Notes: generated from the letters alone by a model not told the origin. A stretch of DNA of 36,705 bases from a virus (IMGVR_UViG_2693429677_000015), one strand, 5' to 3'; shown: positions 6,662-10,863, counted from the first letter of the stretch. Numbers and translations are program-made.

Positions 6662-7720
6662 TTACTGTCGGGAGGTTGTGGGTTGGTTATATAACTCCGT
6701 TGCAAAAATTATCTCTCCTTCAGTAAATGGGATATCTCCGTCAGGCTGTGTCGTAAAACTCTGTGAGACAGTCGTCCAGCTGTTTGTGTCAGCCTGCACG
6801 TCATTCTCTGTAACTGTTTCTCCTTCATGGCTTCCGCTTTTTACACTCCAGGCCAGGCAGTTATTGGGGGCGTCCGCACTGCGATAAGTGACAGCCGCCA
6901 TAACTGCGACTAGATCGCCATTGCTGTTATCTACCGCACCAAACGTAACCTGTGCCGCCTCCGGGGACGGTGAGAGCATCAGGTATCCGGCATCACTGTC
7001 AGAGGTGTTCAGTCCCGTGACGATATCTTTATCCAGCGAGTTTTTCGCACTCCCCCCGGTAAATGCGGTTACCGGGCTGTATCTGACCTCAATAGCCCCA
7101 AGCAGGGCGGGTTCCGCGCTGTTATTTTTTCCGTATGCCACTGTTCCACAGTACATATCACCCAGCATTAACGTGCCGGATGCACCCGATGAAAAAATAT
7201 TGTCACCACTACCAATACTCACCTGAATTTTGTCAGTCCGGTCATCTGGTACATAAAACGATGTATTTCCAACTAATGAGCGGTTGCAGTACAGACTGGC
7301 TGAGACATAGCCGTTTTCGTTTCGCGTTGCGAAAATTTCATAGTAATAACTGGCTGCTTCATCAGGATACGGGGTTGTAAATGAATAGCCATTAATCCTG
7401 ATGTGGGATGGCGAAGATGAATATTTCTTTCCCGCACTTAATGTCAGACGAAATCCCAGCTGTACAGCTGAGGCTTTTAAGTCCGGAAGTGTGCTGTACA
7501 GTGTGACATATGAGGATGTCGTGAAAATCAACCCCGTTCTTTCTACAGTATTTACGGCCTGAGTGCCACGACAGACGGATGTTACAGAACCGGACATATC
7601 ATTGATAAGCGTGACACCGTTTTCGTTCAGTGCTGAAATAATATTTGTTGAATAATAGTTCTCGCACAATCCCTCATTCGCCGGAATTTGTCGGAACCCT
7701 TCCAGATTAATAATATTCAA
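6662..7720 (-). CDS. Ser/Thr/Gly-rich putative distal tail-fibre / receptor-binding protein
   Basis: 352 aa, TTG start with AAGGGG 8 nt upstream; low-complexity S/T/G/N-rich composition typical of fibre distal domains; immediately follows the second fibre N-terminal gene; AT-richer than the core phage. Confidence 0.4.
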   Translation of the reverse strand: MNIINLEGFRQIPANEGLCENYYSTNIISALNENGVTLINDMSGSVTSVCRGTQAVNTVERTGLIFTTSSYVTLYSTLPDLKASAVQLGFRLTLSAGKKYSSSPSHIRINGYSFTTPYPDEAASYYYEIFATRNENGYVSASLYCNRSLVGNTSFYVPDDRTDKIQVSIGSGDNIFSSGASGTLMLGDMYCGTVAYGKNNSAEPALLGAIEVRYSPVTAFTGGSAKNSLDKDIVTGLNTSDSDAGYLMLSPSPEAAQVTFGAVDNSNGDLVAVMAAVTYRSADAPNNCLAWSVKSGSHEGETVTENDVQADTNSWTTVSQSFTTQPDGDIPFTEGEIIFATELYNQPTTSRQ

Positions 7721-7744
7721 AATATTCCCCTTATTTAGTTTCTA

Positions 7745-8602
7745 TTAAGCAGCAGATAAAACCGCAAACTGCAGTACTGCCCGAGCTACTGTCAGTGGCT
7801 CATTGGTTTGATATGCTGGTACAAATAAGCCCCTGTTAACTGTTACCGGCTCGCTCATCAGACGTCCGGTTTGTAATTGTATGTTGTTAATGGTTATCGG
7901 TTCGTGGATGGTGCGCCCTGACTGAACAAATTTTCTATTAATTGTTAAAGGCCCCCTTGTCTGTTCCCCGGACTGAAGCAGTACTCTGCTGATTTGCAAA
8001 GCGGGCTTTGGTGTTTCCGGTGGGAGGGCAGGTTTTTCCTGAGGAGCCATTGCCTCAGCTATCAACATTCGTACAAATTTGGCATTAACAATCTCAAGAC
8101 CCGCTGCATCATTTGGTGGTGTTGGAGTGGTTGGCGCTCCGGAAAACGACGGGCTTTCCAGAGGAGCCTTGTTATTTAATTCAGAAAAAAAATCTACCTG
8201 CCAGCTTTGTGGCGGAGTAGTAATATGAGCGATTTGTGGCAGTCCGCTAAAAATGATGGCGAAATTCCGGATGATAGTTTCTCCTGTGTGTTTATGTCGA
8301 ACAGGACCACTTATAACTCCGCACAATGTGTTACTGGCTTGATGAACCAGGCAAATCCAGTCGTAGTTGAAATTTTCGTTATCAGCAACAATGGCACTAC
8401 ACACAATGCTGTTTTGATCCAGTTTTCCATAATGTAGGTTATTTACCCTGTGCGTGATTTTTTCAGGAGGAATAATCGTATCATCTCTGGAAGGCTCTCT
8501 CTCCATCAGTGCAAAAACAATAGCGTCAGGGCGTGCCGGTAAATTACTGGCGGTGCATTCAGCAACCCATTTCTCAAATGCTTTCGTCAACAGTGCGCTC
8601 AT
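7745..8602 (-). CDS. Second tail-fibre protein (gpH-like N-terminal baseplate-attachment domain, short divergent C-terminus)
   Basis: N-terminus MSALLTKAFEKWVAEC..ARPDAIVFA..NFNYDWICL parallels the gpH N-terminus of 9163..10863 (MSTIITEQYEHWCANQ..ARPDTFVFA..DFEYNWIGL) at protein level, but the nucleotide sequence is diverged and AT-richer. Confidence 0.55.
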   Translation of the reverse strand: MSALLTKAFEKWVAECTASNLPARPDAIVFALMEREPSRDDTIIPPEKITHRVNNLHYGKLDQNSIVCSAIVADNENFNYDWICLVHQASNTLCGVISGPVRHKHTGETIIRNFAIIFSGLPQIAHITTPPQSWQVDFFSELNNKAPLESPSFSGAPTTPTPPNDAAGLEIVNAKFVRMLIAEAMAPQEKPALPPETPKPALQISRVLLQSGEQTRGPLTINRKFVQSGRTIHEPITINNIQLQTGRLMSEPVTVNRGLFVPAYQTNEPLTVARAVLQFAVLSAA

Positions 8603-8608
8603 TACTTC

Positions 8609-9160
8609 TTAATTCTCGCTAATGTTCTGCGGTAATTCTGGCCATACAATCGCGGCATACGATGCTTTATCTGTAACCTGGCTGAATGTCATCTCCCGTA
8701 ACGTTTTTGTATAAATACGGCAGGCTTTCAGTTTTTCCCTGTCTTCGTCGCTGATTAATCCCAGCAGCAGGTCTTTTTCCCATTCGCTGGTCATGATGCT
8801 GACCTGTTTTAACTGTGCATCACGCTCATCTTCCGCTTTAAGTTTGTAGTCGAAGATAAAATTGCCATCGCGGTAAAACCAGTAACCAGGCACGGTAATA
8901 CGGCGATTAGCGGTAATATCCGGAACTTCAATAACACTGGCATTACGGGGTTCAATGCCTGTCACATCCTTACCGACCCACACCACGCGCCCGTCCCCGG
9001 TGTAAACCATTTTTATTGTGTCGCTGGCAAAGTTCTTCTGTTCTTCATGCCAGTTTTTGTCGTCTTCCGAAAAAAGCCAGGTGACACCATATTGTTTTGT
9101 CATCTGATATTGTTCTGCGGTTTTCGGATTGCCCGCAGTAATATTTTTTAAATGCAACAT
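8609..9160 (-). CDS. Tail fibre assembly chaperone (Tfa/gpG-like)
   Basis: 183 aa directly downstream of the gpH-like fibre; C-terminal ...AAIVWPELP resembles the Caudo_TAP family ending. Confidence 0.65.
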   Translation of the reverse strand: MLHLKNITAGNPKTAEQYQMTKQYGVTWLFSEDDKNWHEEQKNFASDTIKMVYTGDGRVVWVGKDVTGIEPRNASVIEVPDITANRRITVPGYWFYRDGNFIFDYKLKAEDERDAQLKQVSIMTSEWEKDLLLGLISDEDREKLKACRIYTKTLREMTFSQVTDKASYAAIVWPELPQNISEN

Positions 9161-9162
9161 TG

Positions 9163-10863
9163 TTAAACACTCGTCACGTTATACCAGGTGCCGTTAATCA
9201 GTTTCTGAAGCGGTCGGTAATACACGCCGCCGATGTTATCTGCCGAATTACTTCCGGTTTCCTGCACATTAATACCAGATAATCCATGGCCTGAAGGTGA
9301 GCGAAATGTCCAGGATATCTGGTTACCTCCCGGGTTGTAATACATTTCGGAACCATAACGCACATCCTGCACGCCGCCTGTTTTGCTCTGGTAACGGGCA
9401 TCAAAGTTTCCGTAGTCTGACGGTGTTACCCGCCCGGTAACGTTTACAGGTTTATTGCTCTGAATGCTGCCACTCTGAAAACGCAACACATGCACGCTAT
9501 TGGCATAAACATCCAGCAGGCCATCACCATTCTGTTTCAGGCCGGTATCGTTATCCCCGAAAGCAATTGAGTTTCCGCCCAGCGCGTTCTGAACGCCGAT
9601 ACCCAGCGCACCATTCACCTGAGAGCCGCCACCAACAGACACTTTATGCGACATGGATATTTCACCCGTCCGCAGATTAATAGTGAACGGACGCAGGGGA
9701 CCAATATCGCCATTTTCGCCCTGATTTTCCTGGGTGGGAATAAGATGCAGGCACTCTTCAGAGCGACGAAAAATCAGGCCAAAAGCTTCGTTGAAAATCC
9801 TCAGTGCATTAACACCACAGATTTTCAGCTCCCCGGTCATGGTGTCGCCGTCGCGCTCAACAGCGTCTTTTGCTTTATCCATTGCAGCTTTTACTGCCTT
9901 TGATGTGGCGGCGCGGTCTTCTGCGTCGCTGTCGGTGGAGTTGCTGTACTGCGCAAAGCCTTTCTCCTTCAGTGTTGCATCCGGATGATGGCGGGATTTT
10001 TCGTGCTCTGCCAGTGCATTGCTCTGTTCCTCGTCGGGTGTCTCCGGGCGCAGGTCCTGTGGGCCGTCTCCTGTCATTTTTGCAAGTGGCGCGACAAAGT
10101 GTCGGAAGCCGTTACCGTCTGTATAAGACGCATGTTCCTGGCGGGCGCAGAACGTAAAAACGGTATTCCATTCGCCGGTAACAAATCCCTGCCAGCTTGC
10201 ATCAATCCAGAGGGTATCCCCGACCGCAGCCGGCAGGCTGTAAGGTTTGCGCAGACTGACGCGCAGACCTCCCACATAACCCACGCCGGCGGCAACAGTA
10301 GCGGTACCATCCTGATAGCTGACCTGAAAACCATCCCCCAGAAAAGCGGCTTCACCGTAGTGATCAAACGCCAGCAGCCGGCGGGCCTCATCCATTCCTG
10401 CAAGGCGCGCAGTGAAATCAATCTGCCAGACATCGGCGCTGACATCGATATGCATTGCTGCGGCCGCGCCGTCAAACTCCATGGAAAATGTGCGGATCAG
10501 GTTGTTTCCCTGCACGCCGTTCGCTGTTTTAATTTTTTGCTGACGAGGTGTGTGTGCAATCATGCAGAGCACGCCGCTTTCTTCGTTCAGCAGACCGATC
10601 CAGTTGTATTCGAAGTCGCCGACTGTCGTGTCCAGAATGATGGAAAACGCGGTCGCGTTTGGCGACAGGAGGCCGTACTGGGTGACCGGCGCACGATACT
10701 GAATCATGGATTCATCAGGGAGTATCTCATCGCGGGGGATCTCTGCGGATTCATCCTGTCCCGGAATATATGCAAAAACAAATGTATCCGGGCGCGCAGG
10801 TTTTCCACTGATGAGCTGATTCGCACACCAGTGTTCGTACTGTTCAGTAATAATTGTGCTCAT
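9163..10863 (-). CDS. Tail fibre protein (P2 gpH-like)
   Basis: 566 aa; EHEKSRHHPDATLKEKGFAQYSNSTDSDAEDRAATSKAVKAAMD matches the conserved gpH segment (EHEQSRRHPDASLTAKGFTQLSSATNST...TPKAVKAAYD) as I recall it; follows gpI. Confidence 0.8.
   Translation of the reverse strand: MSTIITEQYEHWCANQLISGKPARPDTFVFAYIPGQDESAEIPRDEILPDESMIQYRAPVTQYGLLSPNATAFSIILDTTVGDFEYNWIGLLNEESGVLCMIAHTPRQQKIKTANGVQGNNLIRTFSMEFDGAAAAMHIDVSADVWQIDFTARLAGMDEARRLLAFDHYGEAAFLGDGFQVSYQDGTATVAAGVGYVGGLRVSLRKPYSLPAAVGDTLWIDASWQGFVTGEWNTVFTFCARQEHASYTDGNGFRHFVAPLAKMTGDGPQDLRPETPDEEQSNALAEHEKSRHHPDATLKEKGFAQYSNSTDSDAEDRAATSKAVKAAMDKAKDAVERDGDTMTGELKICGVNALRIFNEAFGLIFRRSEECLHLIPTQENQGENGDIGPLRPFTINLRTGEISMSHKVSVGGGSQVNGALGIGVQNALGGNSIAFGDNDTGLKQNGDGLLDVYANSVHVLRFQSGSIQSNKPVNVTGRVTPSDYGNFDARYQSKTGGVQDVRYGSEMYYNPGGNQISWTFRSPSGHGLSGINVQETGSNSADNIGGVYYRPLQKLINGTWYNVTSV

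Follow-up and report, generated by a model that had tools for sequence, protein, structure and literature searches.

A putative two-polypeptide auxiliary tail fibre, formed by a repeat-bearing adaptor and a separately encoded lectin-fold protein, in an HP1-like prophage of Escherichia coli

Fibre tips set the host range of temperate phages, of tailocins and of engineered phages, and for most known tips a matching chaperone is required, which makes swapping them harder. Several receptor specificities can be carried by one virion through N-terminal adaptor domains, as in the lytic coliphages DT57C (LtfA/LtfB), G7C (gp63.1/gp66) and CBA120 (tailspikes). In T-even phages of the T2/T6/S16 type the distal end of the long tail fibre is occupied by the tip adhesin gp38, which has a gene of its own, placed right after gp37 (PMC12032242; PMC12892980). 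This adhesin has been described as modular and monomeric, and exchange of its gene can swap specificity (PMC12032242; PMC12892980). In the baseplate tripods of the lactococcal phages TP901-1 and Tuc2009 the adaptor BppU holds BppL, and BppA is an accessory carbohydrate-binding protein (PMC4742702). Here we describe two adjacent genes from a stretch of 36,705 nucleotides (nt) of DNA (IMGVR_UViG_2693429677_000015; the whole stretch is called the window below and all coordinates refer to it). They lie in the region 6662-10863 and encode an adaptor of 285 amino acids (aa) and a protein of 352 aa. On balance, the pair probably makes up a chaperone-independent auxiliary fibre of two polypeptides, in which a glycan-binding head is supplied in trans and which arrived as an exchanged allele in an existing slot.

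The window is a segment of an E. coli chromosome that holds an intact-looking prophage of ~33 kb from the HP1/P2 group (Peduoviridae, HP1-like). The Pfam families PF10761, PF04865, PF09684, PF12571, PF02413 and PF25759 follow one another in the HP1-type order, and four open reading frames (ORFs), all on the minus strand and annotated alike in a near-identical RefSeq prophage, make up the region of interest, the part of the late operon devoted to host recognition. The first, at 9163-10863, encodes the primary tail fibre (fibre 1; 566 aa), the equivalent of gpH or HP1 orf31, which has a PF12571 N-terminal domain (E=3.4e-29; 102.2 bits against a cut-off of 23) together with matches to PF03406, to gp37-like sequences (gp37_trimer) and to PHROG tail-fibre families. 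Its assembly chaperone follows (183 aa; 8609-9160; PF02413 Caudo_TAP, E=6e-21; phrog_136, E=4.5e-56), then the 285-aa adaptor (WP_001275088; 7745-8602) and lastly the 352-aa protein (WP_001021519; 6662-7720), a putative receptor-binding head. HP1 and Salmonella phage SI7 share this order but pass from the chaperone gene, tfa, straight to orf33 with nothing between, and therefore the genes at 7745-8602 and 6662-7720 are an insertion into the canonical order. The original prediction, made from the sequence of the window alone, had seen two fibre modules in tandem, the second of them AT-richer and lacking a tfa of its own. Both features were borne out: no second chaperone gene is present, and the GC content is 0.456 (GC3 0.395) in the adaptor gene and 0.471 (GC3 0.462) in the 352-aa gene, against 0.51-0.55 for the genes of J, I, fibre 1 and the tape measure. 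At a GC content of 0.447, the gene of the fibre-1 chaperone is AT-rich too.

The 352-aa protein had been taken for a Ser/Thr-rich protein of low complexity. The first part stands, since Ser+Thr reaches 21.9% against 12-18% in its neighbours, but the second does not: the sequence entropy over 30 residues is 3.56, equal to that of the neighbours, and structure prediction returned a globular protein of two domains. The AlphaFold2 model is confident (pLDDT 89.8), and by this model the protein is a ConA-like lectin/glucanase jelly roll joined to a second beta-sandwich, the former superposable on lectins, carbohydrate-binding modules (CBMs) and lyases. A search of predicted viral structures gave its best whole-length matches (TM 0.6-0.67, E to 5e-15) in phage proteins of ~350 aa, for instance those of Achromobacter AchV4, Serratia JS26 and Providencia Kokobel1, a weaker match being that in Hafnia Enc34; the top match (AchV4) is named 'Virion structural protein'. 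Tail-module proteins of AchV4 of 36-38 kDa have been detected in virions by liquid chromatography-tandem mass spectrometry, the exact gene of the structural match not being mapped among them (PMC7996906). By sequence the 352-aa protein belongs to phrog_8291, a family with no assigned function, and matched no Pfam (E<=0.01) or NCBIfam family and no PDB sequence; RefSeq lists the family as 'hypothetical protein'. The ratio of non-synonymous to synonymous substitution (dN/dS) is ~0.2 for the gene and 0.12-0.42 across all diverged pairs, showing that it is maintained by purifying selection. Conservation within the family is highest over the first 15 residues. The family forms 26 clusters at 90% identity, comes from E. 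coli or Raoultella wherever the source is named, and has 19 representatives among 1.84 billion proteins.

The adaptor had been predicted to share a paralogous N-terminal domain with the main fibre and to differ from it in its C-terminus. Its anchor domain (residues 1-143; 8174-8602) matches PF12571 over residues 3-138 (36.8 bits, against the Pfam cut-off of 23), and the N-termini of the adaptor and fibre 1 can be aligned over 160 residues, of which 34% are identical (E=7e-22); judged by this alignment, the adaptor anchor is a paralogue of the fibre-1 anchor. The C-termini are unrelated, as was claimed, yet the adaptor does not simply end differently: it ends in a specific 17-residue repeat array that accompanies nearly all of the 352-aa family. 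Between the two parts, residues 144-182 (8057-8173) form a linker motif, KAPLESPSFSGAPTTPTPPNDAAGLEIVNAKFVRMLIA, which reads KAPLESPSFSGAPTTPTPP...FVRMLIA, contains the recombination joint described below and is followed by a proline-rich spacer. The equivalent stretch of the adaptor at a lambdoid locus (L009) matches PF03406, the phage tail fibre repeat. The array itself (residues 199-285; 7748-8008) consists of one degenerate and four canonical units spaced by exactly 17 residues (xPLvINRxxLQSG...), the canonical ones being GPLTINRKFVQSGRTIH, EPITINNIQLQTGRLMS, EPVTVNRGLFVPAYQTN and, at the end, EPLTVARAVLQFAVLSAA.

A repeat profile was built from 21 distinct units taken from different loci. 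Pro2 is present in 100% of them, positions 3, 5 and 10 are hydrophobic in 100%, Asn6 occurs in 76% and position 13 is Gly or Ala. The terminal unit always carries phi-x-F-A-V (F12-A13-V14, as L-x-F-A-V) and stands at or close to the C-terminus. The dN/dS of the adaptor C-terminus is 0.43. There is no tandem repeat at the DNA level in the adaptor of the window, in contrast to that of locus L030, where 51-nt units match at 92%. No match passed in a protein search with the C-terminal 141 aa of the adaptor alone, and when the repeats were compared with all PDB chains by phmmer and with a profile, the only matches, to helical PEX14, were spurious. The N-terminus of the 352-aa protein (MNIINLEGFRQIP) was considered as an extra repeat unit and rejected, as a position-specific score (32 units) did not rank that site; the top matches in the protein lay elsewhere and were weak, and a control protein scored higher. 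The best control 10-mer against the repeat-unit profile was LTISRMQIPA (10.4 bits), at residue 114 of the orf33-like protein encoded at 5880-6629. This match is probably a coincidence, ~2 of its kind being expected by chance.

The association of array and 352-aa protein extends beyond the window. We compared the neighbourhoods of family members at 38 loci with upstream sequence, drawn from genomes, IMG/VR and assemblies, and at 36 of them a protein ending in the array adjoins the 352-aa homologue or stands two genes off. The array is borne by three unrelated anchors: the tail-collar domain PF12571 (in the window and in E. albertii), the lambda Stf N-terminal domain PF08400 (in a Raoultella myovirus prophage and in lambdoid E. 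coli prophages) and the Mu gp48 baseplate wedge protein PF10076, at times with an Ig-like insert. Two loci (L013 and L016) seemed to be exceptions, the family member following a tfa; the array was predicted to lie elsewhere in the locus and was found there, two genes upstream, on the gp48 homologue. Ahead of a distant member (L042) stands a different repeat, with a period of 16 residues, and ahead of the most distant member (L040) there is none. Copy number ranges from 3 to 7 and varies between near-identical loci, with five units at L028 and four at L029, where the repeats are visible as 51-nt units in the DNA. A single-sequence locus search based on the repeats returned known loci only. In the Mu-like and lambdoid hosts the pair stands beside a normal fibre or J protein, which argues that it is auxiliary in every host examined.

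Some loci depart from the simple arrangement. In three adaptors of the gp48 type (L014, L035 and L013) the array opens with an internal copy of the 'terminal' unit (…GVHFAVVPALTG) in addition to the one that closes it, which may mean two docking sites or a duplicated array. At the lambdoid locus L004 (7002-9357 of that locus) a 257-aa Stf-N protein, whose C-terminal domain is of another kind, is followed by further split parts: a separate mini-protein of 64 aa with one or two repeat-like units, a family member of 359 aa with an ATG start, and an extra 88-aa gene. Moreover, the RefSeq annotation pipeline (PGAP) flags as partial pseudogenes or split genes the repeat-bearing adaptors of the Stf and gp48/YmfQ types and the 683-aa second fibre of the relative SC418 (L009 7059-8024, L010 7038-8020 and L002 4867-6918). 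Each of the flagged genes is one uninterrupted ORF, and the flags look like a systematic artefact of family models that do not cover the unusual C-terminal extensions.

The junction between the two genes was read directly (7721-7747, minus strand). The adaptor ends in two consecutive stops, TAA TAG, and after a Shine-Dalgarno sequence (aagggg) the 352-aa gene begins with TTG at 7720, 24 nt past the double stop; these signals argue for two genes and not one broken gene. The TTG start is kept in nearly all family members, and the junction at L009 is identical (two stops, then KLNKGNIL). A transcription scan gave promoter-like matches below chance expectation, with none between the genes, and found no convincing minus-strand terminator between them, which fits co-expression in one late operon. 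The similarity to other tail types extends to the DNA: cassettes carried by lambdoid Stf anchors share 88-90% identity with 6687-8161 of the window, the stop-Shine-Dalgarno-TTG junction included, and the homology to two of these (L009 and L022) starts at 8161, inside the linker motif.

The original prediction had read the shift in composition as the acquisition of a second host-range module by recombination. Recombination is well supported, but the slot was not new, as ~48 of 5,426 complete E. coli genomes carry the second-fibre anchor. In the E. coli relatives A36 and SC418 this slot is occupied by a single long second fibre, of 645 and 683 aa respectively, with a DUF4376 chaperone after it. 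The anchor of the adaptor has 71% aa identity to the second fibre of A36, and the homology stops at adaptor residue 182. Used as the query of a protein search, the 285-aa protein found 198 relatives that share the anchor at ~70% identity, and the distal ends of second fibres differ, with lengths of 350, 404-431, 645 and 683 aa among others. Alternative distal ends are thus numerous in a slot that this prophage lineage already had. Against A36 the DNA identity is 97-99% from 8541 upwards and 68-73% over 8091-8540; nothing is detectable over 6578-8090, and identity returns to 79-97% below 6577 (79% over 6355-6504). This profile bounds sharply a replaced segment from ~6500 to ~8600, and therefore a replaced allele spans the whole second-fibre gene, the 352-aa gene and the opening codons of orf33. 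The event is an allele swap in a pre-existing second-fibre slot and not the gain of a second module.

It was also claimed that the region is not an invertible segment of the Gin/Pin type, and we agree. No serine invertase was found among the ORFs scanned or in the near-identical prophage, which has 55 annotated features, and there are no flanking inverted repeats, the sole inverted repeat in 5800-11000 being a 16-nt pair inside fibre 1. All genes of the region lie on one strand, so that there are no oppositely oriented alternative fibre ends. The region is not a Gin/Pin/Cin invertible segment. On the plus strand, a strong terminator-like hairpin (6579-6599; 8 pairs, 6 of them G-C, with a T-run) lies antisense in the first codons of orf33 and coincides with the right-hand recombination breakpoint at 6577/6578. 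Fibre 1 has exchanges of its own: its distal half (9163-9963) and tfa (8609-9160) have 84-94% DNA identity to fibres of unrelated phages, namely Actinobacillus phage vB_Apl-pPE4, Stx phage phiP27 and Rac-SA53, which suggests that fibre 1 is itself a mosaic. The same distal half and tfa have 52% protein identity to the main fibre that lies 3' of the cassette in Mu-like prophages.

Taken together, the gene structure, the paralogy, the predicted fold, the purifying selection, the co-occurrence and the breakpoints can be assembled into one scheme. Fibre 1 is a conventional gpH-like fibre with its Caudo_TAP chaperone. The adaptor would plug into the baseplate by its paralogous tail-collar domain and continue through a PF03406-type linker and a proline-rich spacer into five 17-residue repeats closed by the L-x-F-A-V unit, this array providing a short shaft or socket. 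From the co-occurrence and the gene order we infer that the separately translated 352-aa protein docks on the array or on its terminal unit and would there serve as the receptor-binding head. We further infer the presence of both proteins in the virion, a trimeric state for the fibre and binding of a glycan, the receptor being most likely a surface glycan such as the O-antigen, the capsule or the lipopolysaccharide core. A globular head that folds by itself would explain the missing tfa. The cassette of repeats and head was itself moved onto different anchors by recombination at the conserved linker motif. A bolder version, which we put forward tentatively and regard as somewhat doubtful, makes the array a transferable socket and the 352-aa protein its plug, that is, a chaperone-independent cassette for host recognition that could be grafted onto any protein of the tail-tip periphery, such as the fibre anchors of contractile (HP1-like) and non-contractile (lambdoid Stf) tails or even the Mu gp48 wedge protein; repeat copy number would then set reach or valency.

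Several observations weigh against a two-part fibre with a glycan-binding head. The fold of the 352-aa protein is also common to polysaccharide lyases and glycoside hydrolases and does not separate binding from catalysis. The residues Q87, R91, K99, E121, Y125, Y126, E128, D188 and Y190 are invariant, which is over-conserved for a diversifying receptor-binding face. In the AlphaFold2 monomer of the adaptor the anchor is predicted with moderate confidence, and residues 119-285 have pLDDT <50 and appear disordered. Many of the co-occurring loci are near-identical, so that the count reduces to only ~nine distinct adaptor types. Furthermore, neither the repeats (by tblastn) nor the 352-aa family was found in 50,697 deposited phage genomes. 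Being so small and missing from these genomes, the family has escaped study, and a literature search by accession numbers and PHROG identifier found no paper on these proteins.

Because lyases and hydrolases share the fold, the 352-aa protein might be a virion-attached enzyme that degrades capsule or O-antigen as a polysaccharide lyase or hydrolase. We consider this unlikely, as CBMs, legume lectins and the lectin domains of sialidases and toxins match the model equally well and the sequence of the protein falls in no lyase or hydrolase family. In an informal look, the PL7 signature motifs were not recognised in it.

The protein might instead be a non-orthologous assembly factor, which helps the array to fold or trimerise and then leaves or stays as a cap, so that the repeats, or nothing, touch the host. 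Such a role would suit a gene that lies straight after a fibre gene, at the usual position of tfa, where fibre 2 has none; the strict co-occurrence fits a chaperone and its client as well as a head and its shaft, and the adaptor repeats do not fold alone in the monomer prediction. However, at 352 aa the protein is twice the size of the Caudo_TAP and DUF4376 chaperones and matches neither family, whereas A36 does have a DUF4376 gene at this place. A jelly roll of the lectin/CBM type with a second sandwich domain also counts against this role, as does the annotation of its structural analogue in AchV4 as a virion protein, and without the 352-aa protein fibre 2 would have no globular distal domain. 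Moreover, at Mu-like loci a family member can follow a main fibre that already has its tfa. We therefore hold an assembly factor to be distinctly improbable.

There is little to commend the view that the locus is a decaying remnant, that is, a truncated second fibre and an unrelated cargo gene (moron), neither of them built into virions. An adaptor of 285 aa is far shorter than the alleles of 350-683 aa, the segment is AT-richer than its neighbours, and RefSeq marks related adaptor genes as pseudogenes. Those marks are artefacts, though, and were rejected as a sign of decay; the frames of the relatives, which we inspected for disruption, are intact. The low dN/dS values of the 352-aa gene and of the adaptor C-terminus, the retention of the pair on three anchors and in two gene orders, and the lack of a promoter-like site or convincing terminator between the genes all speak against this view, as do the absence of a signal peptide from the 352-aa protein and the state of the rest of the near-identical prophage, which is intact except for two minor pseudogenes. 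We regard decay as very improbable. Lastly, stop-codon read-through of one fibre gene interrupted in frame can be dismissed: the two ORFs do share a frame, 10 codons apart, and their combined ~646 aa equals the 645-aa allele of A36, but the double stop, with a Shine-Dalgarno sequence and a conserved TTG start behind it, the gaps of 17, 22 or 23 nt (out of frame) at other loci and the two genes that stand between the pair at L013 and L016 rule it out.

The remaining genes of the tail module, likewise on the minus strand, are those of an HP1-like phage. Upstream of fibre 1 lie the tape measure (13009-15105), a DUF2590 protein (PF10761) between it and Baseplate_J, Baseplate_J (PF04865; 11492-12679) and a P2_I-like protein (PF09684; 10860-11495). 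Downstream of the pair, the HP1 orf33-like gene (5880-6629; phrog_1677, phrog_31292) holds the right-hand recombination boundary in its 5' end and is followed by HP1_ORF34 (5333-5908; PF25759, E=5e-53) and an orf35-like baseplate protein of 565 aa (3639-5336; phrog_2258, E=1e-233). The last of these has a weak VgrG-like stretch at residues 314-362 (E=6e-4, far under the cut-off), which fits a hub or spike role.

The left flank of the prophage (flk, a gene associated with the type VI secretion system (T6SS), and hok/gef) gave a 99% match to strain RIVM_C019217. The prophage body recurs at 99.6% identity or more in 11 complete genomes of E. coli; for E. albertii NBRC 107761 the identity is 99.2% over the 11 kb of its locus that were compared. 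The same prophage (98.2% over 2600-34518) occurs at another site in strain E200139 (L043), between raiA and pheL, with an integrase of ~68% DNA identity to that of the window, whose own copy abuts flk, the T6SS-associated genes and hok. A swap of the integrase module thus appears to have changed the attachment site. At the prophage border (1000-2811) the GC content falls to 0.34-0.39, and this segment contains a VasI/TagO-like T6SS-associated gene, a zinc-ribbon protein and a Hok/Gef toxin gene (2671-2811). At 26528-27806, a gpA-like replication endonuclease has as neighbours the gene of a ParM segregation ATPase and one for 'plasmid partitioning/stability', which hint at plasmid-like or phage-plasmid ancestry.

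If the socket and plug arrangement is real, it is a fibre architecture undescribed in any isolated phage, and a self-folding head on a short repeat socket would offer a simple handle for retargeting. It would also explain how specificity is traded across tail types in E. coli, E. albertii and Raoultella prophages. In addition, the analysis corrects the annotation of repeat-bearing adaptors, which are often marked as pseudogenes in RefSeq.

Known shafts provide one comparison. The triple beta-spiral is a 15-residue repeat with hydrophobic residues at positions c, e, g, k and m and Pro or Gly at j (PMC3150272). Like the shafts of this kind in the adenovirus fibre and reovirus sigma1, the adaptor has short repeats with an invariant Pro and alternating hydrophobic residues, placed before a putative globular head. 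All 21 units (100%) agree with the consensus at j, k, m and c, whereas e is Ser or Thr and g is hydrophobic in 38%. The period here is 17-19 as opposed to 15, and the putative head is a separate polypeptide. The PDB searches described above left a sequence link to the adenovirus and reovirus shafts unproven, and we treat the resemblance as a lead only.

In its order of genes the window agrees with the tail module of HP1 and other Peduoviridae (orf27-orf35), but HP1 and SI7 have one fibre and this lineage has an extra slot between tfa and orf33. The coliphages DT57C, G7C and CBA120 join full-length trimeric fibres or tailspikes through their N-termini, whereas here a C-terminal repeat array would be joined to a small lectin-fold protein. 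Next closest in function are TP901-1 and Tuc2009, in which an adaptor anchored in the baseplate displays separately encoded carbohydrate-binding proteins, again as an auxiliary module. These are siphoviruses of Gram-positive hosts with unrelated sequences, and the BppU-BppL interface is not a tandem repeat; moreover, one family of heads is combined here with three unrelated anchors, unlike BppU and BppL. Closest of all are gp37 and gp38 of the T-even phages, with a receptor-binding protein separately encoded after the fibre gene. The 352-aa protein has no sequence relationship to gp38 (no Pfam match), and its fold, a ConA-like jelly roll with a sandwich domain, differs. The socket would be a 17-residue tandem array in place of the gp37 tip and, unlike in T-even phages, the cassette occurs on the tails of temperate myo- and siphoviruses and on a baseplate wedge protein. 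The pair therefore belongs to neither the gp38 nor the Bpp family, while a separately encoded fibre-tip protein is the known kind to which it is closest.

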